DNA of 52,310 bases from a virus (taxonomy: Duplodnaviria > Caudoviricetes). Shown piece by piece: positions 2,072 to 27,000 of the stretch. The translations under genes were made by a program, and so were the position numbers. The notes beneath the pieces were generated by a model. The model saw nothing but the letters and a program-made list of their open reading frames with translations, did not search any database and had not been told where the DNA came from. The DNA lies in IMG/VR virus record IMGVR_UViG_3300013113_000097, positions 1 through 52,310 of that record; one strand, written 5' to 3'. Position 1 is the first letter of the stretch; every line of letters begins with the position of its first letter.

Positions 2072-3517
2072 ATGGCAGCAAGCAAAGAACATTTAAAAGA
2101 GATTAATAAAGATTATAAGCTTAAGAGAACTGATGAAGTAACTTCAGCAGGTAACCGAGTTTATCTAAATACTAAAACAGGAGAGAAACATTCTGAGATT
2201 GTTATAACTATAGAATATCCTGAAGGAAGTGGAAATTGGGTTAATGTTCCTAGCTTAATTAATGGTAAAGTTTATACTACTAAAGGTGTTATTAGAATGC
2301 TTGATACAGGCAGAGTAAGACCTAATAGTAGTCATATAAGTGAAAATGACGCTATTGAAGCTGCAGTATATCGTAGTAATAATCTACAATCTAATACTGG
2401 AGAAACTTTAAAACCAAATAATGAATTAGCTGATTTTGATCCAGTTAGACAAGCTTTTATAGATGAAAATGTAAATGCATTTGCAAGTACTTTTCCAACT
2501 AGAGAAGAAAATCCTAATGGATTATTTAGAGTACCAACAGAACTTGAAGAACGACTTAATCAACAAATTCTTGGTACAGATACAGCTTCGATGGAAGAAA
2601 CTGTTGCTAATAATAACAATCTTAAACAATTAGCAGCAATTATGGACAGAGCAGAAGCTGAAAAAGATGATAGCAATAACAATGTAAATTTAGTGCGTAG
2701 TCAAACAGAAAGAATAACTGGGCAAGAAAATCAAGGTGAATTAGATGCAGAAGCTGCAAGTAAAAGAGCAAGTCTTGAAAGAATGTATCAAATAATGGAT
2801 AGAGCACAAAATGAAAAAGATGATAGTTATTTTTATAATCCTGATAATCCAGATTTGAATACTCCTTGGAAAAACTGGAATGCTAAATACCGTATGGAAG
2901 ATATACTTAGAGGAACTGGATTAAAAGGTGCTGAAAACCCTACAATGAATCGCTATACACAAACACCAGTATCAGCAGCAGATCAAGCTATGTTTGATAA
3001 AGCTAAAGAAGAAAGAAGACTTTTACATATGGGTAGGGCTATGTCATCTTATGAACCAAGATATACACCCCCTATAGATACAGGAAAAAGAGTGAGAAAA
3101 GAATTACTTCCTCCTATGCCATTAGGTAACGCTCCTGCTATGGATGATACTGCAGATATTGAAGCAGGTATGAAAACTAAGTATACATTTTCAGAAGGTC
3201 CAAGTACTAGAGGACGAAAAAGAAAAAAGCCTATATTTAGCTTTAATATGTCTCCTGATGAAAAAATGAAAGATAACAGAAGTTTAAAAGGATTAGCTCC
3301 TAAATACGGAGAAATGCCAGGATTTAAAAAAGCAGAAAATGGTAATTACTGGAGTGCAGATGAAAACTCTGAATTTTGGAAAACAGATGCTGGATATGAA
3401 AAAGCAATGGAAACTTGGGGTGCTAGTGGAAATCCATTACCTACATTTGTAAAAAGACCTGCTAGAAAAGAATTAGATGTACAAGCAATTAAAAACTTTT
3501 TTAAACCTAATAGATAA
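2072..3517 (+). CDS. Hypothetical 481-aa hydrophilic protein, possibly virion-internal
   Basis: Long ORF with no Cys seen, located upstream of the portal; contains an internal repeat (IMDRAEAEKDDS / IMDRAQNEKDDS). Confidence 0.7.
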   Translation: MAASKEHLKEINKDYKLKRTDEVTSAGNRVYLNTKTGEKHSEIVITIEYPEGSGNWVNVPSLINGKVYTTKGVIRMLDTGRVRPNSSHISENDAIEAAVYRSNNLQSNTGETLKPNNELADFDPVRQAFIDENVNAFASTFPTREENPNGLFRVPTELEERLNQQILGTDTASMEETVANNNNLKQLAAIMDRAEAEKDDSNNNVNLVRSQTERITGQENQGELDAEAASKRASLERMYQIMDRAQNEKDDSYFYNPDNPDLNTPWKNWNAKYRMEDILRGTGLKGAENPTMNRYTQTPVSAADQAMFDKAKEERRLLHMGRAMSSYEPRYTPPIDTGKRVRKELLPPMPLGNAPAMDDTADIEAGMKTKYTFSEGPSTRGRKRKKPIFSFNMSPDEKMKDNRSLKGLAPKYGEMPGFKKAENGNYWSADENSEFWKTDAGYEKAMETWGASGNPLPTFVKRPARKELDVQAIKNFFKPNR

Positions 3518-9601: not shown

Positions 9602-10132
9602 ATGGCATTAACCCAAGCAAACTTAACACAAGGCAGTGGCTTAACAGTTACTAATAACGTAGTCACAGGTACTGGTGTATTTGATGATCTGATGGAAGCT
9701 GTTACTACACACTTAGAAGCACAATATCAGTTAGGTAGAATAACAGGTTCAGATTTTGCAACAGTTTACTTGGGAGCAATGCAATCAGCACTACAACAAT
9801 CAGTAGCATATACAATAGGACAAGAAAAAACAAATGCAGAAGTTGCTTTGTTAACGCAAAAACAAACAACTGAATTTGCTCAAACTCTTGTAACAGGTAA
9901 CACTACACCTAATGCTAATAGTGTAATGGGTAAAGACATTACATTAAAAGCTGAACAAGCTAAAGGATTTAAGTGGAATGCTGACCAGAAGTATCTTAAA
10001 ACTTTATTAGATGCTTGGGCTATTAATACTAATGTAGCTGGTACACCAGTAACAACAGTTACTGCTCTTAATTCTGGAGGAGTAGGAACTGATCTAAATG
10101 CTCAAATTGCTAACGCAGAACCTACAGGGTAA
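9602..10132 (+). CDS. N4 gp54-like structural protein (short version)
   Basis: GTGVFD.LM.A...HL.AQY..GRITG.D.A.VYLG and C-terminal K.LLDAW motifs; synteny fits. Confidence 0.85.
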   Translation: MALTQANLTQGSGLTVTNNVVTGTGVFDDLMEAVTTHLEAQYQLGRITGSDFATVYLGAMQSALQQSVAYTIGQEKTNAEVALLTQKQTTEFAQTLVTGNTTPNANSVMGKDITLKAEQAKGFKWNADQKYLKTLLDAWAINTNVAGTPVTTVTALNSGGVGTDLNAQIANAEPTG

Positions 10133-10704
10133 TGTCTAACAGATTGCGCAACAATGTTATAGCTTTAGGTATTGTTGCGTGTTTTTGGGTTATCTTTGTA
10201 TTGCCTGTAATGGCAGTAGATGAAAGTTCAATAACACAAAATACTACGTCTACTGTAACAACTACAGGTACAAATGAGACTACAGTTAAGTCTCCACCAC
10301 CTTCAGCTATATCTCCTAATGTAGGTGGTAACAATTCAGATTTGTGTACGATATCTTCTAGTGGTGCTTTAGGCACACAGATATTATCTTTAAGCTTAGG
10401 TGCTACATACACCGAAGCAAATTGTCTTAGATTAAAAAAAGCAGGTAGATTATATGATATGGGTATGAAAGTAGCCGCTGTATCTATAATGTGCCAAGAT
10501 AAAGATGTATGGCAAGCGATGATGGATGCAGGTACACCCTGTCCTATTGATGGCTTGATTGGTGAAGAAGCTAAACGAGCATGGGAAGTTAGAACTGATT
10601 TAGTACCTATGCCAGAGGATGAAGATGAACTTACTGCACAAGAAAAACGTGATAAGGTACTTAGCATCATGGGTGCTACTGCTGCTGCCTTTATCTTCTT
10701 TTAG
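10132..10704 (+). CDS. Envelope cassette gene 1: exported Cys-paired protein
   Basis: Signal peptide (...VLPVMA|VD), Thr-rich linker, SPPPSAISP, 4 Cys in the mature part, hydrophobic C-terminus. Confidence 0.75.
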   Translation: MSNRLRNNVIALGIVACFWVIFVLPVMAVDESSITQNTTSTVTTTGTNETTVKSPPPSAISPNVGGNNSDLCTISSSGALGTQILSLSLGATYTEANCLRLKKAGRLYDMGMKVAAVSIMCQDKDVWQAMMDAGTPCPIDGLIGEEAKRAWEVRTDLVPMPEDEDELTAQEKRDKVLSIMGATAAAFIFF

Positions 10705-11512
10705 CTACACATTCGGCTACACACCTAACGCAGCAATCAACGGCTTACAGTGGTCAATGACTCCTATCTATTTAGGTACTAATGCTATTGGCGGAATGGA
10801 TATCTCAGGAGTAACTTACAAATACACACCTATTAAAGTTAAAGAAGATGATTATATTGTAACGCTTGAAAACGATAAAGTAGGTGGTGGTTATGTATTT
10901 CAAGATGTACAGGATTGGTCACAAAGAGAAGGTGGTGTAGAAGTCAGAAGAACAATTGCTTTACCATACACACCTATTGCAGTGTTTGGTGATGGTAGGC
11001 TTAAACAAGAAGGAACAGGTAGTATAGAAAATCCTGAAGTTAGATACATATATAGATTTGACCCTTGTTTTGATCCACAGAGTGACCCTAACTGTCCAGG
11101 TTATAAAAAACCTGAACCACCTAAATTACCTGAAATACCAGATTATGATGCATTACAAGATGAATCAGTTCAACTAGCGCAAGCAGAAGTTGATAAAGAA
11201 TTGTTAAAGGAGGAAGACGAAGAAGCTAAAGAAGAAGATGAAGAAGAAGAAAAAGAGCAAGAGTTAGAAATGCTTTTGGCTACTGCAGAAAATGCATTAA
11301 CTATTGCAAATGACATATCACAATCTGCTTTATTACAATCTATAAATCAAGCAACAAACATTAACACTTACTATGTCGCAACCATACCAGGTAAGATATA
11401 TAAAGAAGCTATTGTTTTACAAGATAAAGATATAGTGGATAATAGAAAAGCTTTAAGAAGTCTAGGACAAGATAAACTAATGAATACAATGATAGAGGAG
11501 CAATATCGATGA
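10649..11512 (+). CDS. Envelope cassette gene 2: exported protein (beta-rich domain, DPC..CPGY motif, acidic stalk)
   Basis: Probable GTG start giving signal peptide MIRYLASWVLLLLPLSSFS|Y (track start is 10619); 2 Cys. Confidence 0.7.
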   Translation: MIRYLASWVLLLLPLSSFSYTFGYTPNAAINGLQWSMTPIYLGTNAIGGMDISGVTYKYTPIKVKEDDYIVTLENDKVGGGYVFQDVQDWSQREGGVEVRRTIALPYTPIAVFGDGRLKQEGTGSIENPEVRYIYRFDPCFDPQSDPNCPGYKKPEPPKLPEIPDYDALQDESVQLAQAEVDKELLKEEDEEAKEEDEEEEKEQELEMLLATAENALTIANDISQSALLQSINQATNINTYYVATIPGKIYKEAIVLQDKDIVDNRKALRSLGQDKLMNTMIEEQYR

Positions 11513-12000
11513 AGAAATTATTAATAGCATTAAGTTTAATAATTGGAGCTACTCCAATTTTAGCAATAGACATAGATGGAAGTGTTCAAAGTAGATGTAC
11601 TGTTGCAGATGTAACACCAGGTAAATATGGTAACCCTAACGCATACACTTTAACAACAGACCCTTCAAGCGCAGGTCAAGTTCCTGTGGTGCGTTTTGAT
11701 ACTACGTTAGCTAACGCATACTATGCACAAGTAAGTTATCCTACTAGCTTTAGTTCAAGTCCTTCATTGTCTGACAATGTAACGTGGACTGGTGCTGTAA
11801 CTGTAAAAGCTACGGGTGAAAGTGGTATGAGTGGATATCAGTCTGCATCAACTACAACAGGTGCAATGCGTCAATATGGACTTAGCGTAGCAGGTAGTGT
11901 TTGGATACAGTCAACATCAGTAGCTACTTATGGTGGTAACCGTGCATTCCCAGGTGGTACGTATAAAGCAGTAGTATTAGCTGAATGCGTAGCTCAATAG
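11509..12000 (+). CDS. Envelope cassette gene 3: fimbrial subunit-like (Csu/SCPU-like) exported protein
   Basis: Signal peptide MKKLLIALSLIIGATPILA|; N-terminal I.GSV.SRC.V and C-terminal PGGTY.AVV.AEC pilin-like strands; Ser/Thr-rich and beta-rich. Confidence 0.6.
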   Translation: MKKLLIALSLIIGATPILAIDIDGSVQSRCTVADVTPGKYGNPNAYTLTTDPSSAGQVPVVRFDTTLANAYYAQVSYPTSFSSSPSLSDNVTWTGAVTVKATGESGMSGYQSASTTTGAMRQYGLSVAGSVWIQSTSVATYGGNRAFPGGTYKAVVLAECVAQ

Positions 12001-12359
12001 GATTATGTTTACTGCTGCTAAGCGGAGCAGTACTAAGTCATGAAATGACACCTACATATCCTAAGTGGGGAGTTAGTGGTATAGACGATGTAAAAAAGAC
12101 AACTATGCGGTTATGGAATGCAAGAGAAGATGTGCAGTATTATGAAATAGGAGTGTTTACAGAAAAGTGGAAACCAATTCCTTTTGTTACTGCATATCGC
12201 ATTCTTTCTATAGATTATTTAAAAGAAGTAAATTTTGATGTATACATAAAAGAAGAACATGTAGATAAAGCTAGATACATATGTTCATTATCTAAATTAA
12301 GAAGTAAGAACGAAAGTAAAACTTTATTAGCTACTAGAATATGCTCAAAATTCAAATAA
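11985..12359 (+). CDS. Envelope cassette gene 4: PapD-N-like single-domain chaperone candidate
   Basis: Signal peptide, then MTP...TMRLWN......YEIGV......PF....IL, resembling domain 1 of pilus chaperones; 2 Cys in the mature part. Confidence 0.5.
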   Translation: MRSSIGLCLLLLSGAVLSHEMTPTYPKWGVSGIDDVKKTTMRLWNAREDVQYYEIGVFTEKWKPIPFVTAYRILSIDYLKEVNFDVYIKEEHVDKARYICSLSKLRSKNESKTLLATRICSKFK

Positions 12360-12769
12360 AATGTTTACTGTTAATTTTGTTAAGCACACAAGCTGTAGCT
12401 ACTAGTACATCTCTTAATTTACAATTGCCAGGTAGTACTGCTAGTCACGGTACAGATAGTGTTAAAGCTGGCGACATAGACTGTTCTAATAGCATAGGCG
12501 GGAGTACTAATTTTGAATTTGGTTTGACAGGTATTGTGAATAACGCAATAGCACCTATTATTGGTAAAAAAGATCCAGATAACCCACAAACAAAAGACTT
12601 AGGTATTTATGCTAGAATAATAATACCGCTAGATGCACCAAAAGAAAGAATTAACTGTAATACGCTTTATCAATTAGAATTGCAACGTAGAAGACTAGAA
12701 GTAGAAAAGTTACGGCAAGAAATTGAATTGTTAAAAGCATTACAAGAAACAGGGGAGTTCGACAACTAA
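12341..12769 (+). CDS. Envelope cassette gene 5: exported protein with a beta-hairpin and C-terminal coiled coil
   Basis: Signal peptide (...TQAVA|); two Cys flank the alternating strands NFEFGLTG and LGIYARIIIPL; heptad C-terminus. Confidence 0.7.
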   Translation: MLKIQIKCLLLILLSTQAVATSTSLNLQLPGSTASHGTDSVKAGDIDCSNSIGGSTNFEFGLTGIVNNAIAPIIGKKDPDNPQTKDLGIYARIIIPLDAPKERINCNTLYQLELQRRRLEVEKLRQEIELLKALQETGEFDN

Positions 12770-13236
12770 TGGATGATTTAGAAAAGAAAATTAAAGAAGT
12801 TGAAGACTTACGTACTAAACAAGTCAAAGTAAAAGGCTTTAGATTTAGTTGGGCTAGTATTATGGCACTGTTTGCTTTAATTTCTACAATCTTAGGTTCA
12901 TTGTATGGAGGCTTTCTTTTATATCAAAAAGTCGAAGCATTAGCAAATTTGGACTTAGGAGACATTAGTGCTTCTATGGCAAAGACTTCTGCTGATGTAT
13001 TACGTATTGAAGAACATGCTAATGCAATTAAAATAGAACTTAAAAAAGATATGACTGATTTACGCAACAGTCAGTGGAATCTTGAATCTAAAGTGGATAC
13101 AAAGTTACAATCTGTAGATACTAAACTTACTAATTACGATACTAAGTTAGATAGGTTTGAAATTAAAGTCGATAATACTAAAGAAGACTTAATGAAACGC
13201 ATACAACAAAGCCTTGATAATCCTTTAGCTAATTAA
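12769..13236 (+). CDS. Envelope cassette gene 6: membrane-anchored coiled-coil protein
   Basis: Basic N-terminus, one TM helix (about aa 28-51), long heptad region ending LDNPLAN. Confidence 0.7.
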   Translation: MDDLEKKIKEVEDLRTKQVKVKGFRFSWASIMALFALISTILGSLYGGFLLYQKVEALANLDLGDISASMAKTSADVLRIEEHANAIKIELKKDMTDLRNSQWNLESKVDTKLQSVDTKLTNYDTKLDRFEIKVDNTKEDLMKRIQQSLDNPLAN

Positions 13237-13238
13237 AA

Positions 13239-16200
13239 ATGGGTTTATGTGATGTAATTGAAGATGCTATTGAAGACATTGTCGATGCAATCGTTGATGT
13301 CGTAGATACTATTGTCGATGCTGTAGTAGGTGTTATAGATGCAGTACTATCTCCTGTTGCTAATCTATTAGGATATGAAGATGGTGAAACAGATAGTGAT
13401 GATGTAGAACTATTTGAAATACATAACCAAGCTTTATTTGCAGACCCTGATAAAAAAGCTTCTGCAGAAACTGTTGTAAAAGCTATTACTCAAGGACAAG
13501 ATATAGCTGAAGCTTTAAGATTTGCTACACTATTTCAAAATGGCAAACAAAACATTAGAAAATTTATCAAGTATATTGATGATGGTGATTATTTTGAAGA
13601 CTTTCCAACTCTAAAAGGAAATGTAATGACTGTCGACTATGATGAAGTCGATTCTGTGTTAACTACTCTTAATAGCGCTCCGTGCACAATATCTAATGCT
13701 AAATTAGGTACATTGTTTGTAAACCCTTGGCAAAAATATTGGCTTCAAGAAAATAAAGCATATGTACACGAGACTAGTACATTTACACATAGTGGAACTA
13801 GTTACACTGTTAACGTTGCTAATTCTGTATATAACAGTAGTAGTAATGATTACACATTACGTACAGGAAGTCCTTTAGCAAACTTTACTGCATTTAATAT
13901 ACCTAGCAAACCTACGGGACTACATTACATAGTAAATTACTATTTAGACAGTGCTCCTAGCGTAAATAAATTATTTGTATATAAAGTCGGTGCTGGTACT
14001 TATAGTGGTTTAGATGATCCAAATACTCAAATTACTACTACTGGTACAGAAACACTCAGTGTATTACCTGCAATACCTTTACGTTTAAATAATACTAATT
14101 TTAATGCTTCAGGACAAAGTACTAGTAAACGCGATAGCATAATAGGATTAGCTGATACTGTAGGTTTAGACGCTGAAAATATTATTGACGAAGTTATGGC
14201 AGATGTTGCTGCTACTAACATTGCTAACTATCAAAATAAAGTAGACCATGTTTATTTAAATTTTGGTGTTAGAGTCTGGGATACATCACAAATAGCGATG
14301 AATTATGGCTTTAGATTTTTAAGTACGTTATTCCCTGGTCAAGGTGTAACTAAAGCTATTTATGATAGTACACCAAGCTCGGATGACAAACCTTATAATA
14401 CTATTCTTGTAACACAAGGTGATTATAAGTTAGCATTTACCTGGGCTTACATTACATATGCTAATTACACTGTAGCACAGATTAATAGTGCAGGTGCTGG
14501 TTCAGATATATATGATAAATATTATTCAGACGCAAGCAGATTTGATAGTAGCAATAATTTATTAAGTACTTATTACGTTTCATCAGGTATAAAAAGCTAT
14601 AACGTAGGTTATTTTGTTTCTAATGCTACTGAGTTAGCAGCGTTTATTGCAGGTACTCTTACTCAAGAATCTTCTTATTCTTCGGAAGCAGCCAATTGGA
14701 TGCAACCTACACAAGGAATTAGTTTTTCAGGAACAATAATAAATTCAGACAATAGTATTAGTACTTCTGGCGAAGTTAAACCATCTGAAATATATGAACG
14801 TGTACCTACTCCTACTACTCAAGTAATAACAAACAATACGACTTATTACCCAGTTGCTACTTCTGCAACGTTAAAAATCGAAATATCTGGTGGTGGAGGT
14901 GGGGGAGGTAGTGCTGAAAGAGGAGGTAGTGGTAGTAATGGACATAGTGGAGGAACAACTTACGCAAGAGTATATAATGCAGGAGGCACACTATTAAACA
15001 CTTATTCTGCTTCAGGTGGAAGCGGAGGAGGAGGAAATAGTATGGGTGAAACTTCTGTTGGAGATCCTGGAGATAATTTTGGTGGTCCTGGCAGCAATGG
15101 AGTACCTTCAGGAGCTCATTCCTCATTTTCAGGAAGTGGAGGACAAAACTATAATGATTCAGCTGGTGGTCATGCTTCAGGTTATTCAGCAGGTGGAGCA
15201 GGAGCTGGTGACGATGGTGGATGGTTCTATCAAGATGATTCTGGAGCAGGAGGCAATAGAGGCGCTTACTATACTGTAAATCACACATTAGCTAATTCTA
15301 CTGATTATGTTGTAGTTAGTATTGGGGGTGGAGGTGCAGGTGGACAAAGTGGAAATGATGGTGGAAATGGTAGTGCAGGACTTTGTGTATTAACACCATT
15401 ATCAATTACATCTGGAGTAAAAAAGATTAGTAAAGCTAACGAACCTACTACTGTAGGTACATCATTTACTTACTATCAAAATGTAGTTAACGGTATGAAC
15501 ACATACACTGTGCACTCACCTAAAAGTATGTTACGAGTAATTGATTCACAAACTAGTAAGTTTAAGATGGTTAACTTTGATTTAACTGACCCTACTGGTT
15601 TGATGATACCGTTTTCATACGAAGTTATTAAAACCTTACCTAATGACCATGTGTCTAGTTTGTTTGTAGCAAGTGCGCATATATCGTTATATGTAGCTGA
15701 TGTACAAATAATTGAACAACCTGTATGGTCAGGGTTATTAAAAATAGTACAAGTTGTATTATTCTTAATGGCAATCATATCAGGTCAGTTTGCTGCAGCT
15801 CAAGCTATTGCAGCTATGATTAAACAAATAGTAATTAATTTAGTTATAGAAAAGATCATTATTACTATTGCTAAAGAAGTAAGTCCTGAATTAGCATTTG
15901 CAGTAGCTATCTTTATTGGATATACAGTTAGTGGTGGAAAAGGAATAAACTTTAGGGCATTTGAAGATGTAGCAACTTTAATAGGTAATACAGCTGATTT
16001 AATATCAACAGTAATAGAAACTACAGTAGAAGGCTTACAAGAAGATTTAACACTTGAATGGAATGCAGAAAAAGAAAGACAAGAGAGTTTAGAAGACCAA
16101 TTAGCTGAATTAAATGAAGAATATAGTCCTAACACTATAAGACATTTAAGTAACTTAGTTAATGTAAATATGCAATCTACTATTAATCCTATGATGCCTA

Positions 16201-16307
16201 CAGAATACTTAGCTTACTATAACAATTTCCATGTTTTAGGATTTGAAGATTACAATTATGATAATACTTGGGATGTTTTATATGAAACTCAAGTAATGCA
16301 GACTTAA
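13239..16307 (+). CDS. N4 gp53-like structural protein with an inserted glycine-rich domain
   Basis: Position upstream of gp52/gp51/gp50; P.IPLR, DHVY.NFGV and LMIP motifs; hydrophobic C-terminal region; Gly-rich block at about 14860-15400. Confidence 0.8.
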   Translation: MGLCDVIEDAIEDIVDAIVDVVDTIVDAVVGVIDAVLSPVANLLGYEDGETDSDDVELFEIHNQALFADPDKKASAETVVKAITQGQDIAEALRFATLFQNGKQNIRKFIKYIDDGDYFEDFPTLKGNVMTVDYDEVDSVLTTLNSAPCTISNAKLGTLFVNPWQKYWLQENKAYVHETSTFTHSGTSYTVNVANSVYNSSSNDYTLRTGSPLANFTAFNIPSKPTGLHYIVNYYLDSAPSVNKLFVYKVGAGTYSGLDDPNTQITTTGTETLSVLPAIPLRLNNTNFNASGQSTSKRDSIIGLADTVGLDAENIIDEVMADVAATNIANYQNKVDHVYLNFGVRVWDTSQIAMNYGFRFLSTLFPGQGVTKAIYDSTPSSDDKPYNTILVTQGDYKLAFTWAYITYANYTVAQINSAGAGSDIYDKYYSDASRFDSSNNLLSTYYVSSGIKSYNVGYFVSNATELAAFIAGTLTQESSYSSEAANWMQPTQGISFSGTIINSDNSISTSGEVKPSEIYERVPTPTTQVITNNTTYYPVATSATLKIEISGGGGGGGSAERGGSGSNGHSGGTTYARVYNAGGTLLNTYSASGGSGGGGNSMGETSVGDPGDNFGGPGSNGVPSGAHSSFSGSGGQNYNDSAGGHASGYSAGGAGAGDDGGWFYQDDSGAGGNRGAYYTVNHTLANSTDYVVVSIGGGGAGGQSGNDGGNGSAGLCVLTPLSITSGVKKISKANEPTTVGTSFTYYQNVVNGMNTYTVHSPKSMLRVIDSQTSKFKMVNFDLTDPTGLMIPFSYEVIKTLPNDHVSSLFVASAHISLYVADVQIIEQPVWSGLLKIVQVVLFLMAIISGQFAAAQAIAAMIKQIVINLVIEKIIITIAKEVSPELAFAVAIFIGYTVSGGKGINFRAFEDVATLIGNTADLISTVIETTVEGLQEDLTLEWNAEKERQESLEDQLAELNEEYSPNTIRHLSNLVNVNMQSTINPMMPTEYLAYYNNFHVLGFEDYNYDNTWDVLYETQVMQT

Positions 16308-18016: not shown

Positions 18017-21000
18017 ATGGCAACAAATAACGCCATAGATGAAGCTTACTTACAAAGTTTAGCAAATCAACAAAGTACTGTATTAGATAAGGTACTATCA
18101 GAACAAACTGAAAGTTTAGATCAGTTAGTTAATCGTAAAAAAGAAGAGTTAGGTCTTAAATCAGAAGAAAAGACTAATGACTTTATATCTCAAAATATAA
18201 ATATTGATGATATCACAGATGCTGATACTTTACGTAATTTTGGACGTTTATACGGTGGTGGCAAAGGATTTAGTTTAGATGCATATGAAACAGCTAAATA
18301 TGATGAAAATAATGAACTAATACCTTATCTTGGAAGTATAGAACCTACTGATGGCAGTAAACGTAGTAAAAAGTGGGATCTACATCGTATATCTTATGCT
18401 AAAAGAAATGGCATAAAAGATTACACAATGGTGTCTCAGAGAATGTTAAATGAAGAGGCAGCTAAACAAACTGAAGAATTTAAACGTCTTTTACTCGAAG
18501 GACAAAATACTAGTAGTGGTCAAATAGCCGTAGACATCCGCCAGGATGGCGAAGGCTATTATGGTAGACCTTTAATTACTGTACGTAATCCTGAAACAGG
18601 CAAAATCATTAATGAAGTAATGAATACGCCTAAAACTAATGCTATGTTTTATAGTCAATATAATGTAGATTCTTATATTGATGGTGTACAAAAATTAGAA
18701 GAAGCTACAAGAAGTTTTAATGAAAAAACTTATAGTGGTGAAGGATTTTGGATAAGTGCTGGTAAAGGTTTAAGCCAAGGTATAGATGGGTTGCAAGCTA
18801 CTGGTTGGGGAATGGCAGCTTTAATTGCTGATTCAATACCAGGTAAAAGAGGTGAAGCTACTGCTACTTGGTTTATTGAACAGTATTTACGCAACTTAGA
18901 AGAAGCACAAGCAAATGGAGCACAACTTCCTAAAGTAGAGGATGTAGATTGGTCAAATCCAAATGAAGCTTTATCTAAATTTGGAGCTTTACTTGGTGAA
19001 GCTATGCCATCTATTGCATTAATGATAGGTACTGGTGGATTAGGTGGGTTAGTTGCTAAACAAGCAATTAGTGCTGGAGTAAAAGGTGCATTAAAAAATA
19101 CAACAAGCAGTAAATTTAGAAACTGGATGACTAAAACGCTTATACCTAGCGTACAAACAGGTAGAGCAGCTGGTGCTTATCTTGGTGCTACAGGTTTAGA
19201 AACAGGTAGTATATATGGAGATGTAGCTGCAGCTGGTAAAAGAGATTCAAGAGCACGATTAGGCTCATTAGCAGGTGGTACTATAGCAGGAGCTTTAGAA
19301 GCTTTTTATCCTATTAAACTAATGCGTAAATTAGGAATGGGTAAAGCTGCTAAAAGTCAAACTAATAGTTCTCTTAATAAAGTTCTTAAAAATAATTTAG
19401 GTGATAACGCTAAAGGTATAGCAGCAGGTATTCTAACTGGTGGTTCTCAAGAAGGTACAACTGAATTTTTACAGTTCATTGTAGAAGAAGTAACTCAAGA
19501 TTTAATTAAAGAAGGTCATCTACCTGACATGAATAGTGCAGAGTTTAGGTCAGGGCTATTAAATTCTTTTGTAGCAGGTTTAGTTCCTGGTTCTACGTTA
19601 AGTGGTGGAGCTAATTTAATAAATGAAGTACAAAATAGACTTGCAGGCGATCAAGGAGCTACTGCTAGAGCTTATCAAAATATCCAAAGACAAGTACAAG
19701 AAGCAACAAATCAAGAAGCTACAGGAGGCAAAGACCAAAAATCTGAAGAGATATTAGTAGATACAGTTAGTGATATAGAAAAAGTTAGTCAAGACTTAGG
19801 TGTTACTTTACCTGACGATTATGCTAAGAAAGTACCTATTGAAAAAGCTGTATTCCTTGCAGACGCTTTAAACAGGCTTGAAATTCAACAAAAAGACTCA
19901 AGTGGTGGTACAGCCGACTCAAACGTAATTAACGCTAAAAACACTATTAATGAAGCTCTAGACCAACTTAATACAGGTGAAGTACAGATTGATATTAAGC
20001 AAAGAGCAAAAAGAATTGATGATAGTGCTCAAGCAAGAATAGATAGAATAAATGCACGTACTGAGCAAAGAATAAACGAAACAACACCAAGTGGAAAACC
20101 AAAAAGTGCAAAAGCAATAAAAACTATTAAAGATAAAGCAGCTGTACAGATTGCTAATATAGAAAAAGCTAGAGATAATGCAATCAATCGATTAGGTAGT
20201 AAAAAAAGAGCAGCTAAAAAAGGAAGTGCACCAGCTCGTAGTAGTATTGTTTCAGCTGCTAAAAGAATACGAGCAATCAATAAGATTCTTAATAATAAAC
20301 AATCTAATTTATCTAAAGCTAAAAGAAAAGAATTAAATAGAGAGCGTAATCAATTAGGCGTACTCATTAATAACTTAACTAAAAAGAATGAAGTTAATTT
20401 AACTAAAGGAGTTATTAAAGCAGGACAAGATGCAATAGGAAGTTTTAAGTTTCAAAAGAAAGTAACTCAAACACAGACTAATGAAGAATTATCTGATTTA
20501 ATTGATGTAGCGCAAGCCGCTTATGACGACTACATTAATACAAAAGAAGATAATTTATCTGTTAAAGATCGCGAAGAGAAGAAATCTAATCTATTAGGTG
20601 CTTATAGTGAAATAAACAAAGCAATAAAAGAATTACAAAAAGATAAAAAAGAAACTACTGATAAAGAAGCTTTAAAAGAAATTGATGTAAAACTTTCTGG
20701 TTTTGTACAATTAAGAGAGAATATTGTAAGTGAATTAAATAAACTTAATAAAGAAGAAACTAAAAAACAAGAAACAACTACTGAACAAGATACTGATTCT
20801 TTAGATATAGATATATTAAACGAAGGAGTTGATAATGCTACATTAGGTAGCTTACAAGGAGCCCAAAAAGAACAAGCTGAAAGAAAAAATAAAGTTAGAG
20901 ATAGTTTTAGAGCAATAAAGAAAAGACTGAAAAATGCTAAAAAGACTTTATTAGATGTACATGATGAAATCACAAATGGTCGTAAAGGTAAATTTAAAGG

Positions 21001-24000
21001 TTTAGAAACTTATTTAGAAAATGCTAAAAACAATGTATTTGAAGAAACTCAATTTGATGATTTTGTATTAGGGTTAGAACTTAAATATAAAGCTTGGCAA
21101 AAAGCTAAAGCTATATTTAATAGAAAGAAAAACAAAACTGACGTATATGTAGATAAGAATACTTATAAAGTATATTCAAGCCGTAAGCAATTACCTGATT
21201 CTGATTTAAATAATTATTGGTACATCAATGATAAGAGTGATGTGTTAATTGAACTATTAGAATTAGAAATTGAATATGCAAAAAATATAAAAGCAGTTAT
21301 CGCTGATGTACTTAATAATGTAGATAGCAAGGTTAAAAATAAAGAATTAAATGATACTATCATTGCTAATCAAAAGAAGATTGATGAGATTATCGCTAAG
21401 AATCAAGAAGATACAGGAAGTCTTGATGATATAAAGAAACCTAAAGCTAAGCCTAAAAGTAAACCTAAAGCTAAACCTAAAAAAGAAGCAAAAGATTCAG
21501 ATAGCGCGACTGCTCAAGAAATTGAAGATATTATCTTAGAAGCTGAAGAAATTATAGACGAAGATGTATCTACTGATGAATTAGCAAATCCTAAAGAGCA
21601 GACTAGAGCTAATCGTAATAAACGTTTAAAAGCTTATCAAACTAGAGTTATAAATCTTATAAAAAAATTAAGTGCTGAAAGAGATACTCTTAAAGATATA
21701 TTAAAAAATAAAAAACCTTTTAACAGAGTTGAAATACAAGATAAAGTAGATGCATTAAATTACAAAATTGCTAATCATAAATTAGAGCTTAAAAATTTTA
21801 TAGCGGCAGAACTTAGGCAAAAGTCAGCAAATCATTTTTTAACTAAATTTGCTAATACTTTTGCAAAACTAAGAGATACAGTATTAAGTGTTACTGATTT
21901 GTTTAGAATTAAAGATATAGAGCGTGATTCTTTCTTCTCATTTAATCAAAACAAAAACTTAGATGAAAAATCTATTAAGCTTTTATTAGAAAAAGTCAAA
22001 GTAGACCCAGAAAGTGATTACGGAAAAGCACTAGTAAGTCAATTTATTGAGTTTAAAAAAGCATTTAACTCAATTAACTCAGGTTTAAATAAAACAGATC
22101 TTGCAAATGGTTTGTTAGCAAAACAAGCTTTTAAACTGTTTTCCGATAAAGATGGAAATTTACCAGATGAAGTAATTTTTGCAATGATGCTTAGCACTAT
22201 GCATTATGCAGCAGTAAATGTAGGACATAGTAAATTTAGGGCTATGTTTGAAATAGCTGATTTACTTTATGGAGACGCTAAACAAACAGATAGATTAGGC
22301 AAAGAAGAGATTGCTATTTGGGGTAATGCAGGTATTTTTACTAGAAATGCTAGTAAAGATATAGGTTTAGAGATGTTTGATCTATTAAATGTTAAATTTG
22401 AAAAAGACTCTGAAAAAGAGTTTTTGAAGAACATTGCTAAAATTGAAGAAGATTCATCCTTTAGAGGCGTAGTAATTAGAGATTCTAACTTTAGAAATGT
22501 AGCTAGTACATCTTTAGGATTATTAGCAATACAAACTGCCAGGAAAGTAAATTCTAACGGAAAAAAAGATAAAGGTTTATTTAGATTAAGACGTGGTAGT
22601 TACCCAATTAAACATTTTGATAATCCTAATCTTGCTTATATAAATGAATTACAAGAAGATGGTGAGCAATTTATACAGTGGAACACAATACAAATTAAGG
22701 ATTCTGATTTATTAAAGTTATTTAAAGACAATACTGATGAACTTCAAAAAATTAAAGGTGCTGATAGCAATATAAAAGATATATCTTTTAGTGTTCCTAA
22801 AAATGTACAAGAAAGAACAGATAATAGCTTTTTTAAACTTGGTAAAAAAGTAAAAAATCTTATTAAAAAGTTACAAAATGTTGAGTGGATAGGAAAAGAA
22901 TCTGAATTAGATTTATTTATCAGTTTAATGAATCTAGATAAAAATGGTAACTTAATTAAAGATGAAGAAGGTAATTTAGTAATTAATGACGCTTTAAAAG
23001 AGTTAATAGGCTACAAAGAACTTAGTGAACAGCATTCAGAAAATAGAGAAGCTGTTGACTCTGCAAATAAAGAGAAGCTAAAAGATATTGAATATATCTT
23101 TGATTACTATAACAATAGAGAAAAAGGTGGTTTAAGAGGCTTTTATTTTCGATATAAAGCTCAAAGTCAACACAGACTGCGTATAGACAGTAATACTATC
23201 AATCCACAACGTAGTAAGATAATGCGAGCTCTGTTTAATCCAGTAAATTCTGAATCTAAGATAGAAACAGATTCTGATAGAGCGATGTTTAAGTTAGGTG
23301 TTGTGCAAGCATTTGGTTACAACATTAAAACATTAGAAGAAGGTATTAATATATTTAATGCTATTAATCAGAACGAAGCTGTTAAAAATGCTATAAACGC
23401 AACCCCTGAAAACTTTTCTAATGCTTTAACTGAGTTAATGAAAGAAGATATTGTTGATGGGGCAAGTACACACTTAATTGAAGCAGTAGTTGCTTTAAAA
23501 AATTATGATGATAAAGAAGCATTTACAACTACATTAGGTGTTGAAACTGATGGTATTACAAACGGTTATGCAATTGGATTATTACAATTTTTAGATGGTA
23601 CACCTGAAGAACTAAAAGAAGCTTTAGAAAGAATTGGTGTATTTGTCGATCAAAAAGATGCTATTAATACTTACGAAAAATTCATTGCAAGTGGTAAAGA
23701 TGATGTTTATCAAGCATTTTCTAGAAAAATTGTAGAAGCTATACAAGAATTATCAGTTATTGAATCAAATGCTGTAAATGCATTACATGGTCAATTGTTA
23801 GAAAAAGATGGAAGTCTCAGTAAATTTGCAAGAGATTTAGCTAAAAATCCAGTAATGATTAGTAACTATGGTGCAGGTGTAGAAAAAGTTATTAATGCAG
23901 TAATAGGAAAAATTGTCCCTGACTTATATGATACTTTAGCTAAACACCAAACTGCGTATAACAAAGCAACTAATAAAGCAGAACGTGATGCTGTTATGGA

Positions 24001-27000
24001 TGAAATTTCAACTATTAAAGCTGCTTTACTTGCAAGTACAGGTATTGATATTAATTTTGCAGAAAAACTTGCAAACAATAAATTATATGATTTTAAATTT
24101 AGTCCAAAAAGAAAAGCTAAGATAGAAAACTATTTTAGGTCAATATATGCAAATGAAAAGACTAAATTATTTAAAAACGCTTTAGAAACTTTATTAAAAC
24201 CTATCAAAGAATCAAGAGAGATTCTTGTAAAAATAGTAGAAGCAGAATTTTTTATATTCTATTCTGAATTTCAAAAACGTACTTCTGAATTTCCAAAAGG
24301 AAGTTTAACTAATTCAGCTATAAGAATGCATATTGCTGCAGAGCTTGCAGATGACCTTATGCCAAGAATGAATAGTCCTTGGAGTGAAAATGAAGGAGAA
24401 CTATTACAGTTAATTAAACAAGTTGATACTATTGGAACACGTGTAGAAGTTCAAACTGAAGAGTTTGACAATGTTATTTGGGATAAAAGTTCTCGTGAAT
24501 TTAAATTTATTAAAAGTGAATCAGAAGCTCGTATTGGCAGCAATACTGGAACTACTGACCTTGCTGAACCTGGTGTATCCGCAGTAATAAATATGATTCA
24601 AAACATGGATTCAGTAGTATTAGGTGATTTGCTAGAACAAAAACAACAAGTATTACCTATCTATGATGCAGTCATATCTCCAATTAAAGATGCTATTAGT
24701 AATGCTCAAAAATATAATGAAAGCTTTATAAAACGTAACATTGAGCATGTAATGTTAGAAGAAACATTAGCTCAATATAAAAAAGTAGTAGCTAATGCAA
24801 GTAAATATGGAATTGATTTACAAATAATTGATAAGCAATTAAAAACAGAATCTTTTAGAGGAAAACAAATTGTTAAAGAACTTACAGAATTAAATGAAGA
24901 TATTGAAAAAATCGAAATTGATATTGATAAGTTAAAAAACAAAAAGAAACTTACACAAAAACAAGAAAATTTCTTAAGAATACAGAGATTAAGATTAGAT
25001 ACTTTATTAGAAAATAAAGTAAATTTAGAAGAAGAACAAGCTACGTTAACTATAAAAGGCTTAGAAGAAGTATTAGAAGATAAAATTTTACAAAGACAAA
25101 CTAATTTAGAAGCTTTAATAGAAAAATATGGTGATATAGATACATGGGTTATATCGCAAATGTTTTTACCTGAATCATTAGTTGATCCAAAATCTAAACC
25201 TAAACGAGAAGTAAAACCTACTAGACCACCTGTGAGAGTTGGACTTAGAGGTACTAATTTAAGTGAAGAAGTTATTGATGGTTTTAAAGGAGCAAAAGAT
25301 GCTGCTATTCAATTATCTAAATCTAAAAATCAAACAGCTTACGTAAGAAAAATAGCTAAATTGTTAATACCGCTATTATCTGATACAACTGTAGTAAGTT
25401 ATGATTTTGAAAGATATGGAAGAAGTTCTGAAGCAGTAGATGGCACAGAAAGGTCATATCATCATACAAGTGGTCAGCCTATGCGACCTAATGTAATTTT
25501 AATAGAACCTAAAGCAGGTTCAACAGTTTTATTACATGAACTTATACATGCAGCAAGCCAAAGAATTTTAAAAACAGATGCTAAAGATAGAACTTTACGC
25601 CAAAATAATGCTGTTAAAAAAATGTGGAAAGTTCGAGAAGCAATTAAAAAAGAGTATGAACGCGATATGGGTTTAGATGGTAAACCTGCCAGAGGAGATA
25701 TTACAGGAGAAGAAGAAAACAGTATTAAATATTTAATTTATGGTGGTATTGAAAATTGGGATATATCTCAAATAAATGCTCGTAAACGTATGAGTAAAGC
25801 ATTTGGAAACCCTGAAGGTTTAAGAGATAGTGAAGCATTAGCTGAATTCTTAACACAAACTTTAACTAGTGCATATGCACAACAATATTTAAAACGTAAA
25901 AAAATTACAAATAAATCAGTTTGGACAAGACTAGTAGAAACTGTACGAGATTTATTAGGAATTAAAGATGATTCATTGTTAGATGAAGCTTTAAGTATAA
26001 GCATAGAAGGCATTGAAGCACTTAAAGAAGATGACCAACGAAGCCAAGTTGATTTGTTTGATAATGAAGATAAGATTGATGAAATCAAAGTTGATGAAAT
26101 AATTGCAGATGCTAAACGAAAAGAAAAAGAAAATAAAGAAGCAGATGATACTAGTTTTATAGATGTAGATATTTTAAGCCAAATAGAAAATGATAGTAGA
26201 TACCAAGATTTAGTTGATAAAGACAAAAAATTAGTTAAAGATTTATTAGTTGTTAAAGCACAGCTAATAGATAAAATAAATGAATTGGGTGTAGATATTG
26301 TATTTGGTTTAAGTGATCCGTCTCAAGTAGAACAAGAAAGAAAGCAACTACAAAAAGAATTAAAAGAAAATACTAAAAATATTGAATCAATTCTTGATAA
26401 CAAAGAAGAAGATGATTTTTTATTTACAGAACATTTAAACTCAATAGATAATATTGTTGATAATGATTTAAAAGAAATTTATAAAACAAATTCTTTAAGA
26501 GAAAATTTACAATCAATATTTGAAACATTAGGTTTAAGTGGAAGAGATTCTTATCTTAATAAAGGCGATCAACAACGTCAAGAAGGTCATTTACAACGTG
26601 TTTTAACAGAAATTATTAGTGAAGCAGGCATAATCTTAGATGATACTACTTTAACTTTAAATGAAAGCACTATAAAAGCTCATGGAGAAGCTAACATTGG
26701 TGAATCTTCAGTAACAGTCAACTTTAATAAATTTAGACCTGAAACACACTCTGAGCAAACTGCACAAGAGGTTTACGTGCACGAGTTGCTACATATACTA
26801 ACTAGATTTGCATTAACAAAAGATTCACGAATAAAAGAAAAAGTAGAACGTATTCGTAATGAAGTTAAAGCAGAGCTAGAAAAATCTGATAAACCTTACG
26901 AATTATTTTTACGTAAAGATGCTGAAGGCAACATTATTTATTTAACTGATAAACAGTTAGAAATAGAAGCAGCCCAGGCACAATATAACTATCTATTTGG

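Follow-up and report, generated by a model that had tools for sequence, protein, structure and literature searches.

We report a six-gene cassette, O1 to O6, in an N4-like (Schitoviridae) phage represented by the IMG/VR record IMGVR_UViG_3300013113_000097, of which the whole stretch of 52,310 bases was analysed and is called the window in the following. The cassette occupies positions 10132–13236 on the plus strand. Sequence comparisons strongly indicate that O1–O6 constitute a mobile cassette, which in a single marine N4-like sub-clade has come to separate the tail-tube gene from the tail-plug gene, and that its products are not parts of the virion. To judge from their conserved signal-like N-termini and paired cysteines, these products are almost certainly exported. 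No published description of the cassette was found in our literature searches, and as far as these searches reach it is undescribed. With regard to its function, we tentatively favour a lysis-linked, Sec-exported, spanin-like envelope complex, whose basis would be O6 together with O1/O2 and the product of the gene immediately preceding O6. All functional steps proposed here are inferred, whereas anatomy, conservation, mobility and gene linkage are shown below.

The region had been singled out in a sequence-only reading, which described coupled genes for exported and membrane-anchored proteins and interpreted them as a module building a pilus-like or other structure in or on the host envelope. 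The observation is confirmed, well beyond chance, while the interpretation proved right in part.

Anatomy of the cassette and its export signals

The window carries gp55-, gp54-, gp53-, gp52- and gp51-like genes in N4 order, and an open reading frame (ORF) of 3986 amino acids (aa; 18017–29977) occupies the position of the N4 virion RNA polymerase gene. Its portal protein has matches in 477 phage records, mostly of named N4-like phages, at identities of at most 56% with the nearest isolates included. The cassette is flanked on its left by the gp54-like tail-tube gene (9602–10132, plus strand; phrog_2050, virion structural protein, E value 3e-36) and on its right by the gp53-like tail-plug gene (13239–16307, plus strand; phrog_2220, E value 2.2e-52). 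The tail-tube and tail-plug roles are those given for N4 gp54 and gp53 in PMC13434306. In N4 itself, the two genes are neighbours separated by a measured gap of 3 nt, as had been stated in the sequence-only reading. That six coupled genes stand between their counterparts in the window also held, with ORFs and junctions in agreement. The gp54-like gene and O1 overlap by 1 nt, followed by overlaps of 86 nt (O1/O2), 4 nt (O2/O3), 16 nt (O3/O4), 19 nt (O4/O5) and 1 nt (O5/O6), and a 2-nt spacer separates O6 from the gp53-like gene.

O1 (10132–10704, plus strand like all six genes; 190 aa; phrog_20531, E value 3.9e-13) is a predicted exported protein in which a signal-like N-terminus is followed by a Ser/Thr-rich stretch, a conserved SPPPSAISP motif, a helical domain with four invariant cysteines and a hydrophobic C-terminal tail. 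O2 (10619–11512; 297 aa), characterized by its alignment and by the signal heuristic described below, is likewise predicted to be exported and consists of a signal-like N-terminus, a variable beta-rich N-domain, a C-x8-C loop, a Glu-rich linker and a conserved C-terminal domain ending in QY[KRN]. Its long start, which overlaps O1, is backed by N37 and W45, two invariant residues that a start at the alternative Met47, as in one public gene call, would leave out. O3 (11509–12000; 163 aa) is a predicted exported beta-sandwich with the invariant cysteines C30 and C160, and its all-beta model is confident (predicted local distance difference test, pLDDT, 89.5). The small protein O4 (11985–12359; 124 aa; phrog_25455, E value 2e-4) and O5 (12341–12769; 142 aa; phrog_37374, E value 8.5e-7), both predicted to be exported, have two invariant cysteines each. 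Residue 19 of O4, the predicted first residue of the mature chain, is a histidine that is invariant in 31/31 aligned orthologues, and O5 ends in a heptad helix. O6 (12769–13236; 155 aa) is a predicted bitopic inner-membrane protein with one span at residues 26–53 and a heptad-rich helical remainder. It has no cysteine and only weak matches to coiled-coil families, which accords with its earlier description as a membrane-anchored coiled coil. Among O6 relatives the length of the coiled coil varies and the C-terminal motif Q..L(D/E)NPL is constant, with an invariant LDNPL end in the family alignment.

Export signals were called with a home-made heuristic that combines a basic n-region, a hydrophobic core and a small-residue −3/−1 site. 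All three elements are present in O1 to O5, as expected from the five signal-peptide N-termini claimed previously. The best 8-residue Kyte-Doolittle mean of the cores is 2.6–3.2, and the predicted cleavage sites are VMA|VD, SFS|YT, ILA|ID, VLS|HE and AVA|TS for O1 to O5, respectively. A strict version of the heuristic flagged O1, O3 and O4, hence three of the five; O2 and O5 missed the flag on a single sub-criterion, the length of the uncharged run. Of the 47 remaining candidate genes in the window, 2 were also flagged. A signal-like N-terminus is retained in most distinct orthologues (O1, 103/108; O2, 90/94; O3, 75/80; O4, 69/78; O5, 58/61). In 11 of the 80 O3 and 5 of the 61 O5 orthologues, a lipobox, i.e. 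a lipoprotein-type signal such as LTGC|S, replaces the signal-peptidase-I type, which would place these proteins at a membrane surface in some lineages. Such switching within an orthologous family would be hard to account for if these proteins were not truly exported.

The family alignments A1–A6, comprising 19–39 diverse orthologues each, are consistent with this. Within the aligned signal regions the sequence varies and the hydrophobicity is kept, while the residues right after the predicted cleavage sites are conserved in O3 (V-x-I-x-G-x-VQS-x-C), O4 (HEMTPTYP) and O5 (SSSLNLQLP). A recount reproduced the even numbers of cysteines reported for the five mature chains (4, 2, 2, 2 and 2), and all of them are invariant or nearly so in the alignments. 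The part of the earlier interpretation that placed exported products in or on the host envelope is thereby well founded, the lipoprotein signals of some O3 and O5 relatives included.

Homology searches gave little guidance. Pfam, NCBIfam and PADLOC returned nothing above threshold for the six proteins (for O3, Pfam was searched up to an E value of 1), and O1, O3, O4, O5 and O6 all fall into PHROGs families of unknown function. Sequence searches of the Protein Data Bank (PDB) with the O1, O2, O4 and O5 profiles gave no E value below 0.28, the search of the ESM Atlas with O2 gave no usable match, and the 31 O4 alignment members, searched one by one against Pfam, had no family in common. Sub-threshold MerR_1 matches were obtained for 11 of the 21 members of the O1 alignment (best E value 0.016), but they do not amount to a meaningful shared family, and the AlphaFold2 model of O1 is poor (pLDDT 59.7). 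A complex prediction with O1 (residues 60–190), O2 (200–297) and O6 (54–155) scored 0.00, which speaks neither for nor against binding.

The late expression that had been assumed for the cassette is inferred from its position only. A promoter scan found 47 promoter-like sites versus 45.8 ± 4.8 in shuffled sequences and a terminator scan 8 terminator-like sites versus 4.8 ± 2.4, so that neither provided a signal. Contigs from four marine metatranscriptome runs belonging to two studies contain pieces of O1, O3, O4, O5 and O6 at low depth and of the capsid gene at higher depth; contig coverage in RNA libraries of this kind proves neither transcription nor its relative level. At positions 11128–11421, which encode the Glu-rich linker of O2, contig depth was far above that of the neighbouring bins in four marine RNA libraries. 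This depth probably stems from unrelated GAA-rich sequences, since the flanking contig sequence does not match the window, and the bin is a trap for read-mapping studies.

Distribution, mobility and core of the cassette

Relatives of the cassette proteins are numerous. IMG/VR contains 63 relatives of O3 and at least 598 confirmed ones of O1, and a profile search with O3 recovered 3445 proteins from a set of 5.8 billion, of which the 120 listed carried no Pfam domain. Longer, fused forms of O1 amount to 430 proteins, and no informative extra domain was found among the best 120 listed. Searching 144 loci (some contigs counted twice) by tblastn, we detected O1 in 135, O2 in 130, O3 in 122, O4 in 116, O5 in 111 and O6 in 99. 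The order of the genes was identical throughout and more than 100 viral contigs were colinear, while N4-like flanks occurred in only 7 of the 144 loci. A tblastn search with O3 against 50,697 phage records gave zero matches.

The insertion can be followed among the N4-like phages themselves. Eighty IMG/VR loci bear gp54; in 24 of them O1 or the cassette follows gp54, in 50 gp53 comes directly after gp54, and 6 are too short. The 24 positive loci are the closer relatives of the window, with gp54 identities of 58–98%. Hence, the cassette is missing from 50 of the 74 informative N4-like loci, as it is from N4. The genes flanking it are themselves N4-like. On non-N4 backbones it was found after tail-fibre and 2-oxoglutarate (2OG)-Fe(II) oxygenase genes in one locus (L013) and after helicase and thymidylate synthase genes in another (L068). 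Thus, the co-occurrence and synteny proposed as a check in the sequence-only reading are widespread in viral contigs, the view of a self-contained module is borne out by its preservation on several unrelated backbones, and its absence from N4 and 50 N4-like relatives agrees with the judgement that it is not a described N4-like module. A scan of prokaryotes with one genome for each of 185,579 species yielded 36 loci, which by title all come from metagenome bins, metagenome-assembled genomes or single-cell assemblies and have mutually inconsistent taxon labels. None is from a cultured-isolate genome or points to a cellular ancestor, so that no cellular parent system is seen among them.

Comparison of the variants strongly suggests a universal core made up of O1, an O2-type protein with a variable N-domain and a conserved C-terminal domain, and O6, with O3–O5 as an accessory sub-module that accompanies the short O2. 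O3, O4 and O5 always occur together and exclusively with the short O2. In the widespread three-gene form the cassette consists of O1, a larger O2-type protein of 432–853 aa and O6. The N-terminal part of the O2-type protein differs between cassettes and often has repeated C-x8-C motifs. The C-terminal half of O2 matched 5 of 10 O2-type proteins at full-sequence E values from 1.6e-13 to 7.9e-18 and 2 more at 2.4e-6 and 8e-6. That the large O2-type proteins might be fusions of O3, O4 or O5 was considered and rejected, because they have no similarity to any of the three. By eye, a charged heptad helix terminates the product of the gene preceding O6, that product being O5 in the six-gene form and the O2-type protein in the pelagiphage forms.

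The three-gene form is present in two N4-like loci (L053, L076), in three further loci (L020, L026, L038), and in the pelagiphages HTVC115P, HTVC033P (of the HMO-2011 type; PMC9038755), HTVC202P (a siphovirus), Baldr (with T7-like tail genes) and Mosig (a T4-like myovirus). It also occurs in MW202481, a complete lambdoid podovirus from a freshwater spring, in whose records (L182/L183) the O1 and O6 genes are not annotated; the label ‘tonB’ given there to the O2-type gene apparently goes back to a Pro-rich spacer. Roseophage CRP-810 encodes relatives of O1 and O6 and has, at the position of O2, a different gene without a clear signal peptide. Its public annotation looks wrong or incomplete: gp51, recorded as ‘lysozyme’, belongs to the O6-type membrane coiled coils and has the C-terminal sequence NKNPLGR, gp53, recorded as ‘OmpA family protein’, is related to O1, and a lipoprotein ORF of 86 aa (L181, 4615–4875) lacks annotation. 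Some variants have an extra small lipoprotein gene (L039, 7222–7602; L079, 9184–9549; L076, 1887–2039), and its position among the variants is between O5 and O6, after O6, or before O1. These extra lipoproteins could be lineage-specific outer-membrane partners.

Linkage to lysis genes and the search for spanins

The functional context of the cassette is suggested mainly by three genes on the plus strand of the window and their relatives. X1 (738–926; 62 aa) encodes a coiled coil with a C-terminal membrane span and has its relatives directly after O6 in many loci. X2 (1053–1484; 143 aa) encodes a holin-like multi-span membrane protein with relatives beside lysozyme genes. X3 (1486–2070) combines an N-terminal membrane span with a DUF1353 domain (PF07087, E value 3.3e-11, 43.1 bits versus a cut-off of 22.5). 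Neither a Pfam nor a PHROG family was found for X1 and X2, and the PHROGs label ‘tail assembly chaperone’ of the family of X3 looks doubtful. Downstream of X3, an ORF of 481 aa (2072–3517, plus strand) extends towards the portal region without a Pfam or PHROG match. X1–X3 lie about 1.8 kb from the portal gene of the window, and in N4 the lysis genes gp60–gp63 adjoin the portal gene.

When at least 1.5 kb of downstream sequence was required, 94 loci qualified, and in 49 of them O6 was followed by relatives of X1, X2 or both, frequently accompanied by X3. In MW202481 the order is X1, O1, O2-type, O6, SprT-like, X2 and lysozyme, with the X2-like gene overlapping the lysozyme gene and a hydrophobic lysozyme N-terminus that resembles a signal-anchor-release sequence. 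HTVC033P has an X1-like gene, a lysozyme gene and a membrane protein gene directly upstream of O1, the order in Mosig is X2-like, O1, O2-type, O6 and X1-like, and in locus L168 a lysozyme gene, read by eye as GH108-type, adjoins O6. Baldr contains an evident lysis cluster of X1-like, X2-like and lysozyme genes, the X2-like gene being directly upstream of the lysozyme gene. Lysozyme genes are flanked by X1-like genes both in Baldr and in HTVC033P. X1 and X2 are probably holin-type proteins of many marine phages, and X3, which comes directly after the holin-like X1/X2, could be a lysis enzyme directed against the membrane. The phospholipase A2 TtaP has a DUF1353 domain (PMC11525133), and the same paper mentions prophage DUF1353 proteins and a lysozyme domain among the DUF1353 fusion partners. 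Among the roles listed in the sequence-only reading, which ranged from adhesion or aggregation of infected cells over a receptor decoy and superinfection exclusion to an unusual release aid, the last suits these gene neighbourhoods best.

O6 is the only protein of the window in which an N-terminal span is followed by a coiled coil. Candidates for a lipoprotein partner were sought with a home-made lipobox scan, the final version of which recovers three of three controls (lambda Rz1, lambda Bor and N4 gp60a). For the window, it yielded no o-spanin candidate and just one ORF, of 47 aa and antisense inside O6 (12924–13067, minus strand), with the lipobox-like start ALAC. This ORF is probably due to chance because among 101 cassette loci it recurs only in L088, whose O6 is identical. 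The scan of the complete genome of MW202481 returned two ORFs, both antisense to capsid-region genes, that of the complete HTVC202P genome one early-region ORF of 32 aa with a mature part of 7 aa, and that of the complete Baldr genome one antisense ORF of 38 aa; all were judged not to be o-spanins. No ORF at all was returned for HTVC033P, of which 50,000 of 53,075 bases were scanned. Consequently, a canonical o-spanin candidate is lacking in 4/4 cassette-bearing genomes scanned.

Genes for a terminase large subunit, an endolysin or a tail sheath did not turn up among the approximately 19 late-region ORFs of the window that were scanned. With 52,310 bases, as against 70,153 bp in N4 and 68–73 kb in the listed N4-like records, the window may be an incomplete genome. 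At about 30 kb, the coding strand and the GC skew both switch; the plus-strand late genes end with the giant polymerase gene, and the remaining genes, from about 30.1 to 50.4 kb, are on the minus strand. The gp53-like plug protein has a long Gly-rich low-complexity stretch at about residues 545–700 (GGGGGGGSAERGGSGSNGHSGG...) and four hydrophobic spans close to its C-terminus.

Possible functions and comparison with known systems

The sequence data strongly indicate that the five cassette proteins O1–O5 are exported via Sec and stabilized by disulfides in the periplasm, and that O6 remains anchored in the inner membrane, its coiled coil projecting into the periplasm. In the lysis-linked, spanin-like complex that we tentatively favour, these proteins would together form an envelope-spanning assembly belonging to the lysis and egress gene set of the phage, with O6 acting as the i-spanin. 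The outer partner of O6 may be the exported protein encoded upstream of it, which is O5 here and the long O2-type protein in three-gene cassettes; each terminates in a charged heptad helix, and O5, like O3, is lipid-anchored in some lineages. After a holin and a wall- or membrane-degrading enzyme have acted, the complex would breach or fuse the outer membrane and so substitute for the missing lipoprotein o-spanin.

Several observations weigh against this proposal. The cassettes of the window, HTVC202P and Baldr are not beside endolysin or holin-like genes; in Baldr and HTVC202P the trio directly precedes the terminase gene and is separated from the gene for the lysozyme or peptidase, and in L068 and L054 the cassette is found among replication or other, uncharacterized genes. 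Spanin or endolysin genes could fall outside the window if it is incomplete, as it may be. The lipobox scan is our own, and its first two versions, which missed lambda Rz1 and/or N4 gp60a, were discarded. Moreover, phages of SAR11 may lack recognisable spanins with or without the cassette, the scanned pelagiphages all being cassette-bearing. An additional lipoprotein gene adjoins O1 in CRP-810 and L076, and a short membrane coiled coil is encoded in CRP-810 besides, so that these two may have a spanin-like pair of their own as well. Profile comparison of O6 by hhalign with two spanin families gave probabilities of 0.3% for N4 gp60 and 0.2% for lambda Rz. Finally, known spanins manage with far fewer components than the three to six of the cassette.

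Other explanations account for parts of these data. The cassette could serve superinfection exclusion or receptor masking by exported proteins in the periplasm or outer membrane, with the O2 N-domain as a host-specific binder. Phages are known to carry such functions on morons of the lambda Bor/Lom type and on T5 Llp and T4 Sp/Imm, which block phage entry or hide the receptor, and morons often stand beside lysis or tail genes, as lambda bor adjoins Rz/Rz1. The moron-like insertion polymorphism in N4-like phages, the sites in accessory-gene regions, the swapping of the O2 N-domain between cassettes with retention of its C-terminal anchor and the adhesin- or carbohydrate-binding-like beta-sandwich of O3 would all fit. 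Nevertheless, we consider exclusion unlikely, as the known exclusion proteins are single and small rather than conserved sets of three to six genes, PADLOC gave no match, the phages concerned are mostly lytic, and the recurrent link to the holin-like X1/X2 would be left unexplained. That link, together with the one to endolysin genes, would also suit a control of lysis timing, in which periplasmic proteins sense the state of the envelope or superinfection and restrain or trigger X1/X2 in the manner of T4 RI/RIII. Lysis inhibition by unknown factors is reported for N4 (bioRxiv 10.1101/2025.11.12.688109), and phage LambdaSo is reported to require Lcc6, an extra membrane protein of 65 aa, for its lysis. 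However, antiholin homology was not found, the coiled coil of O6, which is long, variable in length and followed by an invariant C-terminus, resembles a spacer crossing the periplasm rather than a sensor, and five exported proteins are many for a regulator, which makes timing control quite improbable. A periplasmic metal or nutrient module, with O4 binding metal via its N-terminal histidine and O6 plus the O2-type protein as a TonB-like transducer, appears decidedly improbable. An N-terminal histidine is the hallmark of copper-binding histidine-brace proteins, the predicted mature O4 begins with an invariant one, the O2-type protein labelled ‘tonB’ does have a Pro-rich spacer, and in some phages the cassette is beside 2OG-Fe(II) oxygenase and ferrochelatase-like accessory genes. 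On the other hand, 0 of 31 O4 members match the CopC, YcnI or lytic polysaccharide monooxygenase families even at an E value of 1, O4 lacks a second invariant histidine, the TonB label rests on low-complexity sequence, and again the link to lysis genes would stay unexplained.

A pilus-like fibre or another adhesive structure on the infected cell, the leading idea of the sequence-only reading and here taken with O3 as the subunit, found little support and is in our view very improbable. The top PDB rows of a Foldseek search with the O3 model are mostly chaperone-usher pilins (FimF, CfaB, the PapG pilin domain, CS17, Caf1 and CsuE), at E values from 1.7e-3 to 5e-2 and template modelling scores of 0.36–0.43, yet none reaches an E value of 1e-3, and the Foldseek search against BFVD gave nothing at an E value of 1e-3 or below. 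In a language-model search with O3, a spore-coat-U (SCPU) cluster, of which 15% of the members carry SCPU, ranked 23 with a score of 0.95, but O3 had no Pfam match to SCPU (PF05229) at E values up to 1. The alternating pattern V-x-I-x-G-x-V at the mature N-terminus of O3 would also suit a pilin. In common with the pilins of chaperone-usher or SCPU (Csu-type) systems, O3 would be secreted and fold into a beta-sandwich, of about 145 aa, that has an alternating hydrophobic strand at its N-terminal end, the matches being weak. Chaperone-usher systems have an usher of about 800 aa and a PapD-like periplasmic chaperone of about 230 aa. Neither an outer-membrane usher nor a PapD-like chaperone was matched in the cassette by Pfam at E values up to 1, and its largest ORF has 297 aa. 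We read the model of O3 as a generic beta-sandwich of the adhesin or carbohydrate-binding type. The least probable of the explanations, and an extremely improbable one, holds that the cassette encodes virion or ejection proteins with hydrophobic N-termini as membrane-insertion segments. The cassette of the window does stand amid tail-tube, tail-plug and ejection-protein genes, and the N4 ejection proteins are membrane-active (PMC13434306), but the cassette is absent from N4 and 50 N4-like relatives, elsewhere it is far from virion genes, and the cysteine pairs, −3/−1 motifs and switches to lipoprotein signals indicate export.

Beyond the spanin-like complex in its narrower form, the core O1/O2/O6, with O3–O5 as add-ons, may be a so far undescribed, phage-specific envelope-spanning machine. 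Its genes are carried by thousands of aquatic phages, podo-, sipho- and myoviruses, pelagiphages and roseophages among them. The machine would be Sec-exported and disulfide-bonded, and its task would be the outer-membrane step of lysis or some other late function at the envelope, carried out in a way that has no relation to spanins or disruptins, with the O2 N-domain tuning it to the host envelope. We regard this wider proposition as doubtful but possible. About 15% of the phages of Gram-negative hosts have no recognisable spanin (bioRxiv 10.1101/515445), and how spanin-less phages breach the outer membrane is largely an open question. The cassette is abundant and occurs in phages of SAR11 and roseobacters, which are among the most numerous virus-host pairs of the sea. 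Its six families have no Pfam, NCBIfam or structural assignment, so that a function would annotate thousands of ‘hypothetical’ genes, and it could reveal a new periplasmic way to open or otherwise manipulate the Gram-negative envelope.

Among known systems, the envelope morons (lambda Bor and Lom, T5 Llp, T4 Sp and Imm) resemble the cassette as accessory insertions in late operons with signal peptides and an action on the envelope, and in their presence/absence polymorphism among close relatives. Whereas the known morons of this kind are single genes, the cassette comprises three to six genes that are conserved as a set, coupled in translation and distributed over many families of phages. X1 and Lcc6 of LambdaSo are alike in size and topology only. 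X3 is above the Pfam threshold for DUF1353, the domain of TtaP, but differs from TtaP by an extra N-terminal membrane span, and its activity and lysis role are putative.

The comparison with two-component spanins, such as lambda Rz/Rz1 and N4 gp60/gp60a, bears most directly on the complex proposed here. O6 shares the build of an i-spanin, namely an N-terminal span, a predicted periplasmic coiled coil and a conserved C-terminus. In several phages the cassette is linked to holin-like and endolysin genes, and the predicted partners of O6 are exported and, in some lineages, lipid-anchored. In contrast to two-component spanins, a lipoprotein gene is neither embedded in O6 nor located downstream of it, where the gp53-like gene follows, and the cassette of the window is in the virion operon, away from X1–X3. 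The o-spanins are small and Pro-rich; the candidate outer partner in the cassette differs from them in being encoded upstream, helical and, as predicted, disulfide-bonded.

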